From a virus (lineage: Duplodnaviria; Heunggongvirae; Uroviricota; Caudoviricetes), in the IMG/VR virus record IMGVR_UViG_2619619127_000006: 6,302 nt of DNA. One strand, 5' to 3'. Below are positions 1-6,302 of this stretch, in pieces (within the stretch, counting starts at the first letter, position 1; the number at the start of each line of letters is the position of its first letter). The notes beneath the pieces were generated by a model, which saw nothing but the letters and a program-made list of their open reading frames with translations, did not search any database and was not told the DNA's origin. Position numbers and translations under genes: made by a program.

Positions 1-78
1 ACACGAAAGATCACATACAAAGAGAAAATTTGTTTGTTTTCAATTCATTGCGCATCCATCTAGCCAACAGTCGCTAAA

Positions 79-102
79 TTGGTACACAATTTGGTACACA
101 AA
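79..102. repeat. Tandem direct repeat, 2 x 12 bp (TTGGTACACAAT / TTGGTACACAAA)
   Basis: Exact 11-mer TTGGTACACAA at 79-89 and again at 91-101, head to tail, in a non-coding stretch. Function unknown; could be a protein-binding site. Confidence 0.4.
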
Positions 103-639
103 TGAAAAATCGACACAGCAAGTTTTTCACCCAGTAAAATCATGGTAACACTAAAAAAGTAGTGATTGCACTATCTCTGTTTGACATTGACTAACATTGT
201 CATCGCTTCAATGAAGTACATCGTCTAACCAGGCTGTTTTAGTTGATAATTGTGACTTTATATCGCTGATTGTTGGTACAAACGGAAAAGGAAGGAGACA
301 AAAAATAACACTATTTATTCATCGAATTAATGGTAACCACAAATTAATACAGATGGACACCATCCGAACCTAAAGAAAGATAAGCGGAAGGTTTCCTGAT
401 AGTGACGCCAGCAACTGACAATGATCTAGTTAATTCTCACGACTAGCGACTACTAGCACTGTCGGCATATAAAGCTCACTAGGGTATGAGGTCAGATGAT
501 GGAGAAAAGAGGCTGAGGTGATAGTTGCCGATGATACAATACCGACAAGTAAGTTTATCTGGCACGATGTGTCTCGCACTGTACGGATGATTAAAAATCA
601 AGTAGGGAGCCTTGTGTCTGCTGTTTGAGATGGATTATC

Positions 640-690
640 ATTTTTTATAAGATTACAGGAAAATTATTTTCATATACTGTTTTATTTTTA
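640..690 (+). promoter_or_regulatory. Possible sigma70-type promoter region for the NTPase gene
   Basis: AT-rich stretch with a TATACT hexamer at 673-678 about 30 nt upstream of the ATG. No well-spaced -35 (TTACAG at 653-658 leaves only a 14-nt spacer). Shine-Dalgarno before ATG 711 is weak. Speculative. Confidence 0.2.
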
Positions 691-710
691 ACAGCGAGCC
701 AGAAAACTTG

Positions 711-2453
711 ATGAAATACTCTAACAGCAATCTTATTATAAAAATAATACATCTACTTTCACAAAAAAGAGATGGTCTGATTTTGCTTGATGGGAGCTGG
801 GGCACAGGAAAGACTCACTTTATCAGAAAAAAATTCCCCAAGTACTATGATAAAAACATTTTCTATTATATTTCTTTACTAGGTATTAAATCCTTATCAG
901 ATTTCAAAGCTAAAATTATAGATTGTTACTACCTGCAAGATATACAAACATTTAAATCCGGGCTCGAAAGTCTATCAGGGATAGGTAGCATTGCCAGCGG
1001 CTCACCTGCAAGTGCCAATATTATTAACAGCATGTTTAATTCTATTGGTGCAAGTGTTAGAGAAAACATTTTATCAAAACTGGATGGTATTTTTATATTG
1101 GATGATATAGAGAGAATATCCGAAAAATCATTAGTTAGTGAAATTTTGACATATTGCCATTCTCTTTATATGTCCGAGATGAACTCAAATTTAGACTTTA
1201 TTATTATTACCAATACATCAACTGAGTCTGGTTTAAAAATAGAACACAAGGAAAAACTCATTGCAGAAACACTTCATTATAATCCGCATCCAGAGGAAAT
1301 ATTGGATATAGATATAATAAATGGAAAGCTTTCCCAATTCCCACAGGAAGATAAAATTCTCTTTGAGGATATAGTAAAAAATAACAACATAGTTAACATC
1401 CGTATTTTGATGCGTATTTTGGACACAGTTACGCCATTATATGAATACGTTAAATCATATCCTCATCTTTCTTGGCGAATACCATCAACAATTCTTTTAA
1501 ACTCAATATGCTCTTTCTTCATTTTATTATTTTTGCATAATCACTCTCTTGAGGATCTTCTCAAGGACAAAGATCCAACTTTTTTATTAAACACCGAGAA
1601 ATCAAGTGATAGTGAGAGAGTGCTATGGTTAGCATTGAATAATTACAAAATAAAACCTGAGATTAAAAGGTATTATAGCGGACAAGCTTCATTAAATGAC
1701 ATATTGGATGTTTTGTTTTATGAAGCAAAACGGCTTACTATGAGAGAAATTGCAATATCAGCACGTCCAGAATTACATGAGATAAATGAAAAGGAACTTT
1801 CAAATACACTTGTCGACTTAATTTGCCGTAAGATTGACTGTAATTTCTATGAATGGATAAAAGCGTTTCAGAATTATGAGTATTTAACCACACATAAATA
1901 CCTACCAAAATCACCAATTATAACTCTAAAGTTTGTCACTTCGATTCTGAACGGATTCACTGACAATGAAGTTGCAGAATGCTTTGAGCTATACTCACTT
2001 GATAGAAAAAATAGCTTAAATAGTGGTTTTGAAGATAGCAAATTGCTGTACTCAATTTCATTTTACCGTTATGAAAGCACGATCAAAATGCGTGAACTCA
2101 ACACTATTAAGTTGCAATTAGAATTGAATGGCTGGGCATCATTCAATGCTAACCAATTAACCACTTTAGATCCATTCGGAAATTATAAGCCGCTTGAAGT
2201 ACTTGGTGTATCATTTGTAACAAAATGCGTTTTAAAGAATTGGGCAGTTAATGATATTGAGCAATTTAGTTCTTTCTTGCGTAGCAACTATCAAATCAGC
2301 AACATAAAACAATTCGCCACTAATGAAAAAAACAAACTTATTTATCTTAGTCAAAAACTTGATATTTTTTGCCTTTCCTATAAAGAAAGCTTTAAATTTG
2401 GAGCCATATACGATCTAAACAGAACAGTTAAAATTGCCATTAACAAATTATGA
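711..2453 (+). CDS. KAP-family P-loop NTPase (putative), about 580 aa; candidate accessory/defence protein
   Basis: Long uninterrupted ORF in the track (708..2453). Position 708 is TTG, immediately followed by ATG at 711, which I take as the more likely start. Walker A 'LLDGSWGTGKTHF' near the N-terminus has the GxWGxGKT form typical of KAP NTPases; Walker B 'GIFILDDIER' lies about 90 aa downstream. The remaining ~360 aa have no motif I recognise. The gene is markedly AT-rich and Ile/Asn/Lys/Tyr-rich compared with the tail genes. Confidence 0.7.
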   Translation: MKYSNSNLIIKIIHLLSQKRDGLILLDGSWGTGKTHFIRKKFPKYYDKNIFYYISLLGIKSLSDFKAKIIDCYYLQDIQTFKSGLESLSGIGSIASGSPASANIINSMFNSIGASVRENILSKLDGIFILDDIERISEKSLVSEILTYCHSLYMSEMNSNLDFIIITNTSTESGLKIEHKEKLIAETLHYNPHPEEILDIDIINGKLSQFPQEDKILFEDIVKNNNIVNIRILMRILDTVTPLYEYVKSYPHLSWRIPSTILLNSICSFFILLFLHNHSLEDLLKDKDPTFLLNTEKSSDSERVLWLALNNYKIKPEIKRYYSGQASLNDILDVLFYEAKRLTMREIAISARPELHEINEKELSNTLVDLICRKIDCNFYEWIKAFQNYEYLTTHKYLPKSPIITLKFVTSILNGFTDNEVAECFELYSLDRKNSLNSGFEDSKLLYSISFYRYESTIKMRELNTIKLQLELNGWASFNANQLTTLDPFGNYKPLEVLGVSFVTKCVLKNWAVNDIEQFSSFLRSNYQISNIKQFATNEKNKLIYLSQKLDIFCLSYKESFKFGAIYDLNRTVKIAINKL

Positions 2454-2934
2454 GAACATCCACTTTACCAAAAAATCATTTTTTTGGTGGGGTAATACCT
2501 GGCGATTAACAAATCTGAAACAAAGCTCTAATACAGCGGCGAAAGCATGATTTACTTGTGTATATTTAGTTCAAGACGTGCTTCGCCGTGCATCTCTCAC
2601 TATTTCCCTCCAGAGCAACATTAAAATACTTCATATAATATATGATATAAGTATCATCTAGCCAAAAACCATTTGAATCCACATGCATTCCAGCTTTTAT
2701 TGATACTCTATCTGATATATCATCCCACCAATTCAGCCATTAATGCTATGACAGGAATTCTAGTTATTCATCATTTTGAGCTGATGATGCAATAACGCAA
2801 TTCATTAATATATAATATTTTTTCACTCACCCCTATTACTTCTGTGGCGCTTGCAAAAAATCATTCAGTCTGAAGCAGGTAATTAATCTCGCCACTTACT
2901 ATCAGTTTCGGGAAAGTACACTAAACATGCTTTT

Positions 2935-3234
2935 TCACCCACGATTAACTAACCGCCAGACCAGCAGACACGCCACCACCGGCACAGCAAAATCCATCAT
3001 GCTTGCCACATCCCACGCGCGTGGATCAAAACCGCCCCACCACGGCATATTCATACGCTTGCCATGCCCGAACATTTCAATCCAGCGATATTCTGCCTGG
3101 GTGTGTTCACGCGCAATGAAGAACGTACAACCGGCTATCGCTCCGTAAGCCCAGTTCCCGGTAAAAAGACCAATCAGTAGCTGCGCAGCCACAGCACAAA
3201 GAGCATGAAGGAAAGGTGTTATATCCATTTTCAT
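2935..3234 (-). CDS. Small hydrophobic (probable inner-membrane) protein of unknown function, about 97-102 aa
   Basis: Track ORF 2935..3243 begins at a TTG. In-frame ATGs at 3232-3234 and 3226-3228 follow an AGGA Shine-Dalgarno-like sequence, so the true start is probably one of these. The protein has two to three hydrophobic stretches (FLHALCAVAAQLLIGLF, AYGAIAGCTFFIA, FAVPVVACLLVW) and a Trp/Gly-rich loop (MPWWGGFDPRAW). Stop TGA at 2935-2937. No family recognised. Confidence 0.55.
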   Translation of the reverse strand: MKMDITPFLHALCAVAAQLLIGLFTGNWAYGAIAGCTFFIAREHTQAEYRWIEMFGHGKRMNMPWWGGFDPRAWDVASMMDFAVPVVACLLVWRLVNRG

Positions 3235-3243
3235 CCTACCCAA

Positions 3244-3265
3244 TAAAACGGGGCGCTCGGCCCCT
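3244..3265 (-). terminator. Putative intrinsic terminator after the 346-aa fibre gene
   Basis: GC stem GGGGC (3250-3254), loop GCTCG, GCCCC (3260-3264). Read on the minus strand it is followed by GTTTTATTG, immediately after the TAA stop at 3271-3273. The U-tract is short and interrupted, and the next gene's start lies directly after it. Confidence 0.4.
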
Positions 3266-3270
3266 TAATA

Positions 3271-4311
3271 TTATTTAGACGCAAGCGCCGCCTCAATTGC
3301 AGATAATCTTTGTCTTAATTCTGCGTTTTCTTCTTCCAGTGCTGTTATCCTGTCGTCTGACTCTCTGGCTCCCTGAACAAGCAAGCCAGTAACACCAGAA
3401 TAATCTACAGTGTAATACCGTTCACCTTCTTCTCCATCTAATCCACTCCCGCCGTCTGGATATTTCATCATAGACCCTACGGCTTCGGGGATGGCTTCCA
3501 GGGTTTCTTGTGCAATAACACCAGCGTAAGGCATACCGTTTTCTTTAAGCGTGTATGTATAGCCGTTCATTTTACGAATGCGGTCGATTGCATTATCGAT
3601 CACCTGAATATTGTCTTTCAGATCCCGGTCAGAGCCTTGATTAAATGCACTTGCATTGCACGCGCCGTTAACCGTTAATTCGTAGGTATTGCTGGTAGTT
3701 TTCTGCGCATAGAACATATAAGCGCCACCATCAACACCGACTTCATAAACAACAGGACGGCTGGAGTTGCCCCACAATTGAGCAGTAACACCAGCATAAG
3801 CGGTTCCCTGTGTGTTTAATGTCATGGTTGACCCATGATTGGCATATTTGATCTGTAATGTGTCGGTGTAATCAAATTTAATAAGCGCGTTACTTCCACG
3901 CTTGCTGTATGACATAAGGCAGTTACCCATTTTGAGGTATCCGCTGTCACCGGGAAAAATCATCGTACCGCCATAAAGGTTGGTAAAGTCCCAGCAAATG
4001 TTTGTCCCGTTATCGTTCAGGTTAAGGCGCGCCATTGCGTTACCTGGACTGTCTATCCATTTTTTGAGGTATAGTTCGCAATACGCATCCTCAACACCTG
4101 CCGTCCTGTGAGTTGAGCGGAGTTTTCTCCCAAATATAGCTCCGCTAGTTGGCAATACCTGCTGATACCATGAAGCAGACCAGTCACCAACGATTTCATC
4201 TTTGCTGTCTACATATAATTTTGTTGCGTAGCTTCCTTGATCGTTTTTTAATTTGCTAACGTCGGATTTTAGCGTTTTGATGTCATCAGGAATTACTGTC
4301 GATGTAGCCAT
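3271..4311 (-). CDS. Tail fibre / tailspike distal protein with C-terminal intramolecular chaperone (peptidase S74-like) domain, 346 aa
   Basis: ATG at 4309-4311 preceded by GAGGAAG. The C-terminal ~120 aa carry 'GSDRDLKDNIQVIDNAIDRIRKMNGYTY ... YAGVIAQETLEAIPEAV ... YTVDYSGVTGLLVQGARE ... ITALEEENAELRQRLSAIEAAL', which matches the S-D-x-x-L-K-x-N-I signature, GxIAQE core and terminal coiled coil of the autoproteolytic chaperone domain of endosialidase / T5 L-shaped fibre type proteins. Codon usage matches the neighbouring tail genes. Confidence 0.8.
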   Translation of the reverse strand: MATSTVIPDDIKTLKSDVSKLKNDQGSYATKLYVDSKDEIVGDWSASWYQQVLPTSGAIFGRKLRSTHRTAGVEDAYCELYLKKWIDSPGNAMARLNLNDNGTNICWDFTNLYGGTMIFPGDSGYLKMGNCLMSYSKRGSNALIKFDYTDTLQIKYANHGSTMTLNTQGTAYAGVTAQLWGNSSRPVVYEVGVDGGAYMFYAQKTTSNTYELTVNGACNASAFNQGSDRDLKDNIQVIDNAIDRIRKMNGYTYTLKENGMPYAGVIAQETLEAIPEAVGSMMKYPDGGSGLDGEEGERYYTVDYSGVTGLLVQGARESDDRITALEEENAELRQRLSAIEAALASK

Positions 4312-4320
4312 TTTTCTTCC

Positions 4321-4602
4321 TCACATCCAGCCACGAAGTTGATGCTCAACAGCAACCACGTATTCATCGAATAATGACGATATTTGCGAATCATTAATGA
4401 TGCGCACGTTTACAAAATATCCGTCTTCCTTAACACATACCGGTTCGCCATCTTCAGTCAGTTCTCCGGTTTCTTTGTACACGTTACCTATCACGTCAAT
4501 AAGAATATCATCCTGCATCGACTCGTCATCATAATAGCCAGTGCTATCCATAAAGGCCGAAAAGTCGGCCCTGTCGGCAAATTTGAGTGTTAAATCTTTC
4601 AT
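4321..4602 (-). CDS. Small acidic protein, 93 aa, translationally coupled to the tail fibre gene; possible fibre adaptor or assembly factor
   Basis: ATG at 4600-4602 overlaps the fibre gene's TAA stop (4602-4604) by one base. Its own TGA stop (4321-4323) overlaps the Shine-Dalgarno of the next gene. Asp/Glu-rich; no similarity to lambda Tfa that I can recognise. Function is inferred from position only. Confidence 0.55.
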   Translation of the reverse strand: MKDLTLKFADRADFSAFMDSTGYYDDESMQDDILIDVIGNVYKETGELTEDGEPVCVKEDGYFVNVRIINDSQISSLFDEYVVAVEHQLRGWM

Positions 4603-6302
4603 TAGATTGACTCCCCCACCTGAGCATCAGTCAATGCCTTGTGCCATATTCTGAAATTCCTGACATGACCAAATAAATGACGTAACCCGGCTGTAGTCTG
4701 GCCTCCAATACGGATAATTGCGGTGTTCTGAATACAGGACCATGTGGTTTTTGTTTCGCTGGATATATGCCCGTTACTTACTGAGCACGTAGACTGCTCT
4801 GACTTTACACGCATCCCCATAACCATTTTTTCAAGCGATGCGTTTTCGTTTACCCGTCTGTTAGCTCCTCCAATATCGCAATAAGGAAATCCGTCGTAAT
4901 CTGTTGAACGACCGAAGCCAAGAATAATAGCCGCTCCGGTTTGATGACCGCCGGTATCAAAAACACGTGGCGCTGCATTTGGCGTTTTATACCAGTTCTT
5001 ATGTACCTCACAAAGAACCGTAAAAGGAAGATTATAAAGATTATTCTTAATTGGAACTGTAACTATATCGCTTGCGCGGGTCGCCGCCGTCGCTCCTGAT
5101 ATAATAAAAGATGATACACAAGGCCCATCTTCTACTTGTGGGGTGGCCAGATAAATATAGTCACCAGATACGGTTGCCCCGCTCTGCTTAGGAGAATACT
5201 GTATCTGAGAGCCTATTTTTAACTCCCCATCAATTGCCTGAATTGTTGCCTCTGCAAAAATCCATCCGGTAGCTTCGTCCTTTCTGACTCTCGCTGTGAT
5301 CCTTGAGGCAGCACCGCCTGTCATATTAATTTCAAGCGTTTGTGTATCAATATACGCATCACCAAGAAAAGTTGTTGCGCTACCGTCATATTTATCAAAC
5401 CGGATACGCAACCTTACCTGCAGTTCTGTTTTAAAACGACATGAGGTTGTCACGTGTTTATTATCGCCTGAGACATCAACTGACTTTGTTGCAGCAATTG
5501 ATGCCATATTAATGGCTGAGGTTTGCCCAATCAGAGAATCGTTACAGACAAACTTTCCATAGGTAAAACCAAAACTATCCGTCCCGGTTTCGGGAACATC
5601 CATATTTGACGATCGCCCCCAACTGGCAGGGCTTTCCGAATTGAGCATGTAGTTTGTTCTTTGCCCCTCAATAAGCAGGCCATCACGTTCAAATCGTGGC
5701 TCGTCAATGGCAGCCTCTGTCAGCACACCAGATTTGTTAATATAGGTTGCTTTCGATGCACGTTTAAACTTAACAATCTTGTCGCCAGGCATCGTTATTT
5801 CATCGTCACCAATAACAATTTTTTTATATGATGGCGAAAAGCCCGTAATCATATCCAGCGAATCGTTAAATGGTATCCACACATCAGGCAGCGGCTGTAA
5901 GACATATTTATACGGCTCCGCAGCCTGGCTTGCGTACTCTCTGGCTGCATCTTCGCTTGCTTTAGCTGCCGTCTGGCTTGCTGCCGATGCTTTCGCTGAG
6001 TTCGCAGCCGCTGTTTCGCTCACCTTTGCGTTGGTTTCACTGGTTTTTGCTGCTTTTTGACTGTTAGCTGATGCAGTAGCAGAAGCAGCCGCCGCGCTTG
6101 CAGAACTGGCTGCGGCACTCTCGCTTTGGGCCGCTGCATCCTGACTGCTTTTCGCCGCAGTTTCACTGGCTTTGGCATTCGTTTCGCTGGTCTTCGCTGC
6201 CGTCTGGCTGGACTTTGCGTTAGTTTCACTCGTCTTCGCAGCTTTCTGGCTGTTAGCCGCAGCAGTTGCTGATCCAGCTGCTGAAGTCGCAGAACCGGCT
6301 GC
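4602..6302 (-). CDS. Side tail fibre protein (Stf-like), 5'-partial; N-terminus lies beyond the window edge
   Basis: The track's 473-aa ORF starts at a GTG (6021-6023). Translating the same minus frame by hand from 6302 downward gives an uninterrupted 'AAGSATSAGSATAAANSQKAAKTSETNAKSSQTAAKTSETNAKASETAAKSSQDAAAQSESAAA...NSQKAAKTSETNAK' run with no stop, continuous with 'SETAAANSAKASAASQTAAKASEDAAREYASQAAEPYKY...'. These 'AAKTSETNAK' repeats are characteristic of lambda Stf and the related enterobacterial prophage side tail fibres. The C-terminal ~440 aa are Gly/Thr/Ser-rich, consistent with a fibre shaft. Confidence 0.85.
   Translation of the reverse strand, partial: AAGSATSAAGSATAAANSQKAAKTSETNAKSSQTAAKTSETNAKASETAAKSSQDAAAQSESAAASSASAAAASATASANSQKAAKTSETNAKVSETAAANSAKASAASQTAAKASEDAAREYASQAAEPYKYVLQPLPDVWIPFNDSLDMITGFSPSYKKIVIGDDEITMPGDKIVKFKRASKATYINKSGVLTEAAIDEPRFERDGLLIEGQRTNYMLNSESPASWGRSSNMDVPETGTDSFGFTYGKFVCNDSLIGQTSAINMASIAATKSVDVSGDNKHVTTSCRFKTELQVRLRIRFDKYDGSATTFLGDAYIDTQTLEINMTGGAASRITARVRKDEATGWIFAEATIQAIDGELKIGSQIQYSPKQSGATVSGDYIYLATPQVEDGPCVSSFIISGATAATRASDIVTVPIKNNLYNLPFTVLCEVHKNWYKTPNAAPRVFDTGGHQTGAAIILGFGRSTDYDGFPYCDIGGANRRVNENASLEKMVMGMRVKSEQSTCSVSNGHISSETKTTWSCIQNTAIIRIGGQTTAGLRHLFGHVRNFRIWHKALTDAQVGESI
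5940..6302 (-). repeat. Imperfect tandem coding repeats inside the tail fibre gene
   Basis: Nucleotide blocks recur with variation, e.g. 'tttcactggtttttgctgctttttgactgttagc' near 6036-6068 against 'tttcactcgtcttcgcagctttctggctgttagc' near 6222-6254, and 'gctgccgtctggct' at 5966-5979 and 6197-6210. They correspond to the AAKTSETNAK / AAKSSQ peptide repeats. Confidence 0.6.

Follow-up and report, generated by a model that had tools for sequence, protein, structure and literature searches.

Cargo genes, or morons, of lambda-like phages occupy a slot between the last tail gene and the attachment (att) site, as seen in the b-region morons of lambda (lom/bor type), in sitABCD of uropathogenic Escherichia coli (UPEC) 536 and in the O-antigen acyltransferase of P22/Sf6-like elements. 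Here we analyze a stretch of 6,302 nucleotides (nt), IMG/VR record IMGVR_UViG_2619619127_000006, which we call the window; it is one end of a lambda-like prophage, and the same slot in it holds an AT-rich gene for a KAP-family P-loop NTPase. Like the b-region morons, this gene deviates in composition, is convergent with the late operon and has a putative promoter of its own, and the content of the slot varies between prophages. Unlike the single-gene morons of the b region, it is embedded in the decayed remnants of an SRAP-KAP-umuCD cassette, with no clean insertion.

Some phages restore the target that they interrupt, among them phage 21 and e14 in icd and the integrators of tRNA genes. In Vibrio cholerae, the prophage-like element Aux3, which belongs to the type VI secretion system, integrates between gcvT and thrS (PMC7721734). 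It was the sole thrS-adjacent element in our literature search, which gave no relevant report of an E. coli prophage att site at thrS/arpB. The prophage described here resembles Aux3 and the gene-restoring integrators in its tyrosine integrase, in the direct att repeats that adjoin thrS and in a phage-borne copy that restores the target. It differs in that the hairpin of the thrS translational operator contains the core and that the 5' regulatory leader with its promoter is what gets replaced, whereas other restoring integrators replace a 3' coding or tRNA end.

KAP NTPases fused to C-terminal regions of unknown nature protect Enterococcus faecalis from phages in a Walker-B-dependent manner (PMC13552941). 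The protein encoded in the window shares with the KAP family (PF07693) the Walker motifs and an NTPase domain followed by about 300 amino acids (aa) of no known fold, while the typical transmembrane helices inside the NTPase domain are missing. Such helices, according to Aravind et al. in 2004, are reportedly typical of KAP NTPases, though not universal. The defense system Tmn, from Gao et al. in 2020, is likewise said to be a transmembrane YobI/KAP-like NTPase. Our protein resembles Tmn as a single-gene P-loop NTPase on mobile elements; it is not a member, however, since the Tmn profile of PADLOC is not matched at E ≤ 0.1 and the protein lacks a transmembrane segment. The F-plasmid protein PifA, which we take to be another P-loop NTPase of the KAP family, was not detected: a tblastn search of a plasmid collection gave two records only, from Enterobacter and Vibrio, and no E. 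coli F-type plasmid, and no direct comparison with PifA was made.

The explanation that we consider highly probable as a whole is that the window is the att-bounded end of a lambda-like prophage, that the abrupt compositional step within it is an internal mosaic joint and that the AT-rich KAP NTPase gene is cargo left over from a cassette. This architecture is ordinary, and the current understanding of prophage architecture is unchanged by it.

The prophage end at the thrS operator

The window is 100% identical to positions 1894324-1900625 of E. coli CNR65D6 (NZ_OU701452.1), where thrS, the gene for threonyl-tRNA synthetase (ThrRS), is 29 nt away from the left end of the window. Beyond the right end follow the genes for Lom, J, tape measure, capsid, portal and terminase. 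Farther right are lysis, Q, replication, cI-like and recombination genes and a tyrosine integrase, then espL1 (arpB in K-12), yniD and ydiY; the integrase is 47 kb from the window and adjoins espL1. In K-12, thrS and arpB are directly adjacent. The att core and its arms were defined by aligning the K-12 thrS-arpB intergenic region with both prophage ends, together with blastn, and the following features were placed at the left end of the window.

1-23, no strand: att core of the tail side (attR in the lambda convention), ACACGAAAGATCACATACAAAGA; the true prophage boundary
24-240, minus strand: phage-borne replacement of the thrS 5' leader (upstream operator hairpin) with promoter region, about 87-88% identical to the native copy (alignment, blastn)
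79-101, plus strand: two tandem TTGGTACACAA motifs, putative arm-type integrase sites

The same 23-nt core recurs beside the integrase gene (locus L002, 21329-21351) and is present as a single copy in K-12. At the thrS end, the sequence to the left of the core is host, as is the sequence to the right of the core at the integrase end (97% to K-12); the remaining two arms that flank the cores are phage. An uninterrupted empty site was found in 5351 of the 5426 complete E. coli genomes, and the K-12 site is empty too. Since att cores stand at both ends and the empty site is intact elsewhere, the element between thrS and espL1/arpB is a lambda-like prophage of about 47.0 kb, and the entire window is prophage DNA. 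The thrS site is little used in E. coli, being occupied in about 1.4% of complete genomes.

Integration joins thrS to the phage-borne leader and promoter copy, and the native leader copy (97% to K-12) is displaced to the integrase side. We thus find the same core at both ends, a single copy of it in the empty site and a phage arm homologous to the displaced leader. The pattern is typical of a phage that integrates in a gene region and supplies a replacement for the part that it displaces. The upstream operator hairpin is retained, with few paired changes, in a consensus fold of the native, lambda-like and P22-like copies. A tyrosine integrase placed the lambda-like prophage in the thrS 5' leader, and the window is its tail-side end.

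In the free Salmonella phage vB_SosS_Oslo, whose integrase is 75% identical to that of the prophage, the attP is flanked by umuC and int; part of it resembles the thrS leader (78% identity) and has this same core along with the twin motifs. Because a free phage carries this homologous stretch in its attP, the thrS-leader-like arm in the window is phage DNA. By the same comparison, vB_SosS_Oslo is predicted to integrate in the Salmonella thrS leader; its attP region is at locus L018, 3520-4000, and its twin motifs are of the TGTGTACCAA type. The TTGGTACACAA motifs give two exact matches versus 0.15 expected, and window positions 76-103 are repeated perfectly (28 nt) at locus L002, 21173-21200, 25 nt from the int start codon. 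The motifs probably serve the integrase as arm-type sites. An integrase at least 99% identical to that of the lambda-like prophage is found in 73 genomes, P22-like prophages included.

In the mRNA sense, the att core occupies positions -29 to -51 of the thrS leader and covers the 5' stem and the loop of a predicted hairpin, GUGAUC-UUUCGUGU-GGUCAC, which spans -42 to -22 from the thrS AUG and has CGU in its loop. We assume this hairpin to be operator domain 2, the anticodon-arm mimic of thrS autoregulation known from the Springer and Romby laboratories. An integrase aimed at a tRNA mimic in an mRNA leader recalls the att sites in tRNA genes. If the operator hairpin is indeed the target, ThrRS in the lysogen would be made from a phage-supplied operator and promoter that are 87-88% identical to the native ones, and autoregulation might change. 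The case also documents a little-used E. coli integration site inside the thrS operator.

A mosaic joint and the cargo slot

The att core lies at the extreme left of the window, far from the place where its composition changes. The sequences on either side of that change include the following.

711-2453, plus strand: KAP-family P-loop NTPase, soluble, 580 aa, AT-rich cargo gene; conserved ATG at 711 (the mechanical open reading frame, ORF, starts at TTG 708)
2454-2930, no strand: AT-rich non-coding spacer between convergent genes, part of the rare cargo block and present only in the 71 NTPase carriers
2930/2931, no strand: mosaic joint between the rare cargo block (left) and a common tail-fiber module (right), seen as a homology break

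The preliminary description had judged by eye that 708-2453 was roughly 30% G+C with AT-rich flanks and that 2935-6302 was roughly 50% G+C with different codon usage, the switch falling at the convergent gene boundary. Segment counts give a G+C content of 0.335 for 1-2934 versus 0.465 for 2935-6302. On the left, the estimates hold, with 0.316 for the NTPase ORF (708-2453) and 0.372 and 0.351 for the flanks (1-707 and 2454-2934). The right side is indeed richer in G+C, but the figure given for it was slightly high: in the sliding-window profile, values of 0.50-0.56 are reached only in 2851-3300 and 5851-6302. Maximum likelihood places the best single change point after base 2823 (2-log-unit support, 2814-2960). 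The log-likelihood ratio of 55.2 for this point is far beyond the 200 block shuffles, which give a mean of 3.9 and a maximum of 11.1. The step lies, as had been described, in the 481-nt gap that separates the convergent genes. The difference in codon usage is also borne out. G+C at third codon positions (GC3) is 0.293 in the NTPase gene versus 0.39-0.53 in the four phage genes on the right. In a codon-usage score computed against 13 neighboring host genes, the NTPase gene has -0.142, the lowest value in the region; tail-fiber-module genes range from -0.07 to +0.04, host genes from -0.02 to +0.25 and the prophage structural core from +0.08 to +0.19. In all, the prophage has three composition tiers, with G+C of 0.54-0.59 in the structural core, 0.42-0.52 in the tail-fiber module and 0.32 in the NTPase gene.

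What, then, does the step separate? With a query of window 2400-3300, 1905 of the 5426 genomes match only from 2930/2931 rightwards (their matches begin at query positions 531-532), so that homology breaks 4 nt beyond the stop codon of orf102, a small gene on the minus strand. Segment 1-2934, or the spacer alone, occurs in 71 of the 5426 genomes, the two always together, and a distant blastn search with the spacer in E. coli returned the same 71 loci only. Because the right side is present in 1905 genomes and the left side in 71, the G+C step (about 2820-2930) is an internal mosaic joint between rare cargo and a very common tail-fiber module. The module on the right is one that about a third of all E. 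coli genomes have in their lambdoid prophages.

It had been proposed instead that the step marks a prophage boundary, and one of the two options offered was that the NTPase gene belongs to an islet of its own just outside the prophage, which here would put it between the prophage and thrS. The sharp break in both G+C and homology at 2930/2931 would suit such an islet, as would a 60% identical Cronobacter homologue, which forms an AT-rich islet by itself, surrounded by host genes and away from any phage genes. Against this, the att core at 1-23 has its partner beside the integrase and host sequence resumes only outside both cores; the suggested comparison with prophage-free genomes thus puts the true boundary about 2.9 kb left of the step, with prophage DNA on both sides of the step and the NTPase gene within it. 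The attP of vB_SosS_Oslo shows, moreover, that even the thrS-leader-like arm is phage DNA. In repeat searches of 1-3300, direct repeats were absent and the inverted pairs were weak, with none flanking the NTPase block, so the block bears no sign of independent insertion; no recombinase was found in 1-2934. The block remains joined to the tail module in 70-71 of the 71 carriers, with no carrier of the block alone, and SRAP and umuC remnants tie it to the prophage cargo of other genera. A separate islet is therefore extremely improbable; att mapping, which places the gene inside the prophage, refutes it.

The other option, a moron appended to the prophage end, has stood up well. The NTPase gene (711-2453) lies between the att core at 1-23 and the tail module, which begins at 2931; its G+C of 0.316 compares with 0.42-0.52 in the tail module and 0.54-0.59 in the structural core; and it is absent or replaced in relatives that share its flanks (tail module in 1905 genomes, cargo in 71). 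The NTPase gene is cargo in a slot between the last tail gene and att that is equivalent to the lambda b region. In all four carriers whose wider context was inspected (CNR65D6, 2452, FG92-1 and PSS-10), it is next to thrS inside a prophage or a prophage remnant. In heavily deleted remnants, thrS, the NTPase gene, orf102 and the tail-fiber gene are still together, and the NTPase ORF is intact. Other prophages fill the slot differently: sitABCD follows orf102 in the UPEC 536 prophage, a recombinase and a tail-fiber-assembly remnant follow it in AMSCJX02, and in P22-like prophages whose integrase is at least 99% identical to this one and whose att site is the same, an acyltransferase takes the place of the NTPase. 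This acyltransferase, located at 8345-9055 in locus L005 and at 7342-8052 in L007, is a probable O-antigen modifier. Variable cargo always begins a few bases past the orf102 stop codon.

These results correct the position of the prophage end and illustrate that compositional steps inside prophages can be internal mosaic joints. Had the step been used as the boundary, the NTPase cargo gene would have been misplaced.

Cassette remnants and the NTPase

Around the NTPase gene, three further features are recognizable by comparison with other genera.

279-628, plus strand: decayed SRAP (YedK-like, PF02586) gene remnant, C-terminal ~120 codons, broken by a frameshift and by in-frame stops
629-710, plus strand: conserved upstream region of the NTPase gene, with a putative promoter -10 element, TATAAGAT, at about 644-653
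2498-2548, minus strand: short remnant of the umuC 3' end, inside the spacer

At 90% identity, the homologues of the NTPase fall into 37 clusters, all of them enterobacterial. The Citrobacter homologue (70% identical) and the Enterobacter homologue (39% identical) are both at the end of a lambdoid prophage, in the order SRAP, NTPase, convergent with umuC-umuD, then tail fiber and J. The SRAP proteins that precede these homologues match the E. coli remnant in tblastn (E = 4e-17 and 4e-13 for Citrobacter and Enterobacter), in two frames with stops and ending at the same stop position. The umuC remnant is a 54-nt blastn match (77.8%, E 1e-5) and agrees with the UmuC C-terminus at 10 of 17 aa; its relative position is that of umuC in Citrobacter. 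The E. coli block is thus a reduced form of an older SRAP-KAP-umuCD cassette, of which Citrobacter and Enterobacter prophages have the intact version. Decay has reached SRAP and umuC and left the NTPase gene as the sole intact part of the cassette, and the AT-rich flanks of the gene fit such pseudogene decay. In Cronobacter sakazakii, the lone homologue (L014-L016, 7183-10323) has flanks of about 27-29% G+C and lies between host frmR-like/alcohol dehydrogenase genes and a major facilitator superfamily transporter gene.

It is tempting to read the low G+C as a sign that the NTPase gene was recently imported from a low-G+C donor, particularly as it has 31.6% G+C, 29% GC3 and the worst codon-usage score in the region, and is found in only 71 of the 5426 E. 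coli genomes. However, the 37 homologue clusters are all enterobacterial, and exhaustive searches gave no homologues above 80% identity in a low-G+C phylum. Homologues in Citrobacter, Enterobacter and Cronobacter, 39-70% identical, share a G+C of 0.31-0.32 despite saturated synonymous divergence (dS), and the syntenic, partly decayed cassette indicates that the phage lineage already carried the gene before there was an E. coli form of it. Recent import is thus very unlikely. The NTPase gene has a G+C of 0.31-0.32 in four genera, with dS of 1.5-3.1 (saturated) and a ratio of nonsynonymous to synonymous divergence (dN/dS) of 0.09-0.12 between genera. Because G+C is about 32% in every host even though synonymous sites are saturated, low G+C is a long-standing, maintained trait of this NTPase family, with no mark of recent import. 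The gene is under purifying selection.

The protein matches Pfam KAP_NTPase (PF07693) over residues 8-170 (29 bits versus a gathering cut-off of 20, E 8.4e-7); the NCBIfam search was without a match. Its Walker A motif is GxWGTGKT and its Walker B motif is ILDDIER, and residues G29, W31, G32, G34, K35 and T36 (Walker A) and D132, D133, I134, E135 and R136 (Walker B) are invariant in 26 homologues. Residues 78-113, the segment that corresponds to the transmembrane insert of other KAP proteins, form a Gly/Ser/Ala-rich loop modeled at a predicted local distance difference test score (pLDDT) below 50. Kyte-Doolittle 19-residue means of at most 0.61 across residues 70-110 show no transmembrane insert in the NTPase domain, and one hydrophobic helix (258-276) lies in the helical region past the Walker B strand.

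Among defense databases, the best match is the PADLOC candidate family PDC-S49 (7e-16, residues 25-250). In a family profile search of 1.84 billion representatives, 74 relatives pass E ≤ 1e-30 and 381 pass E ≤ 1e-10; full-length sequences of 550-620 aa are numerous among them. Positions 16-579 of the profile align with P0164, a bona fide PDC-S49 protein whose whole length matches that family (4e-92), and the intermediates P0072, P0081 and P0113 likewise match it over their full length. The 580-aa protein is, on these profile matches, a probable divergent member of candidate family PDC-S49: lengths are similar and P0164 provides a full-length link, while the direct match covers the NTPase domain only, which makes this a divergent branch. 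PDC-S49 is itself, to our knowledge, only a prediction, and our literature search found no paper mentioning it.

Upstream of the gene, alignment with the Citrobacter and Cronobacter loci retains TTTTTTATAAGAT / TTTCTTATAATAT, with the -10-like TATAAGAT conserved across genera, and a consensus scan finds TTGAGA-17-TAAGAT at 625-653. The NTPase would be made in the lysogen from this putative promoter, convergent with the late operon. As a single-gene anti-phage defense, a KAP-type P-loop NTPase would control an all-helical C-terminal domain.

We consider anti-phage defense, a predicted role, the most likely function of the NTPase and give it about an even chance. Several observations weigh against it. 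PDC-S49 is only a candidate family, and the direct match of its hidden Markov model is limited to residues 25-250. Validated KAP and Tmn proteins are membrane proteins, whereas this NTPase has no transmembrane insert, and its C-terminal half has no structural match. A tblastn search of 50,697 phage records with the NTPase gave no match, and the plasmid collection gave two matches only (Enterobacter, 69.5%; Vibrio, 27%). The promoter is a consensus match with conservation, and no terminator was found. Within E. coli, a dN/dS of 0.72 comes from only 23 changes and is uninformative. Finally, the neighbors of the Citrobacter and Enterobacter homologues include SOS and DNA-damage genes (SRAP, umuDC, dinI), and this setting may hint at a different role.

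That different role is the main rival to defense: the NTPase would serve an SOS or DNA-damage-tolerance cargo (SRAP, UmuDC, DinI), or it would be a relic with no host benefit. However, the SRAP and umuC neighbors in E. coli are decayed and the NTPase ORF is intact in all loci inspected, the gene stands alone in Cronobacter, and dN/dS is about 0.1 between genera. In addition, family-level matches are only to the defense-candidate family and to KAP, which has validated anti-phage members. We therefore regard an SOS-linked role or a relic as rather unlikely, though less so than the alternatives above. Returning to defense, a fuller proposal, which we put forward tentatively, has two parts: the soluble KAP/PDC-S49-like NTPase would be a functional anti-phage system on its own, its all-helical domain serving as a new effector or sensor, and the integrase of the prophage that carries it would target the anticodon-arm-mimicking hairpin of the thrS operator in the way that integrators of tRNA genes target anticodon loops. 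The NTPase gene is a new addition to an already known kind of candidate, and the analysis flags a conserved, persistently AT-rich NTPase under purifying selection as a prophage-borne defense candidate.

The tail-fiber module and other features

Right of the joint, the window contains the following genes.

2935-3228, minus strand: orf102, small conserved phage gene, the last of the tail-fiber module; 97 aa annotated, 102 aa from TTG 3243
3271-4311, minus strand: tail fiber protein with a C-terminal S74 intramolecular chaperone domain (Pfam Peptidase_S74, 6.6e-14; phrog_4563, 6e-214)
4321-4602, minus strand: orf93, conserved phage protein of 93 aa between two fiber genes (phrog_1361, 7e-46)
4602-6302, minus strand: side-tail-fiber gene, the 3' part of a 791-aa gene that runs off the right window end (phrog_1419, 1.5e-257)

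The product of orf102 matches phrog_1443 (6.8e-58) and has no Pfam, NCBIfam or PADLOC match; the gene is present in 1905 of the 5426 genomes. An NCBIfam search with orf93 was without a match. A scan of the spacer (2454-2934) showed no ORF of at least 50 aa and no terminator-like site. Nothing in Rfam matches the window at E ≤ 1, so no described RNA accounts for either spacer.

In the RefSeq annotation, the side-tail-fiber gene extends over 24602-26977 of locus L001. Its more N-terminal part in the window, 5851-6302, has a G+C of 0.54-0.56 and a strong negative AT skew (-0.34 to -0.47), and this stretch is probably the Ala-rich repeat region of the gene. The 69-aa and 93-aa ORFs listed within 5851-6302 were rejected as frame artifacts. 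In a subset of the carrier genomes, an element of the insertion sequence (IS) family IS3 breaks the side-tail-fiber gene, and in one genome IS1 lies near the junction of the spacer with orf102. These insertions indicate ongoing decay of the prophage while the NTPase gene remains intact. The same prophage carries further cargo genes in DLP12-like regions, iss (serum survival lipoprotein) and emrE, at 1410-1703 and 11695-12027 of locus L002.

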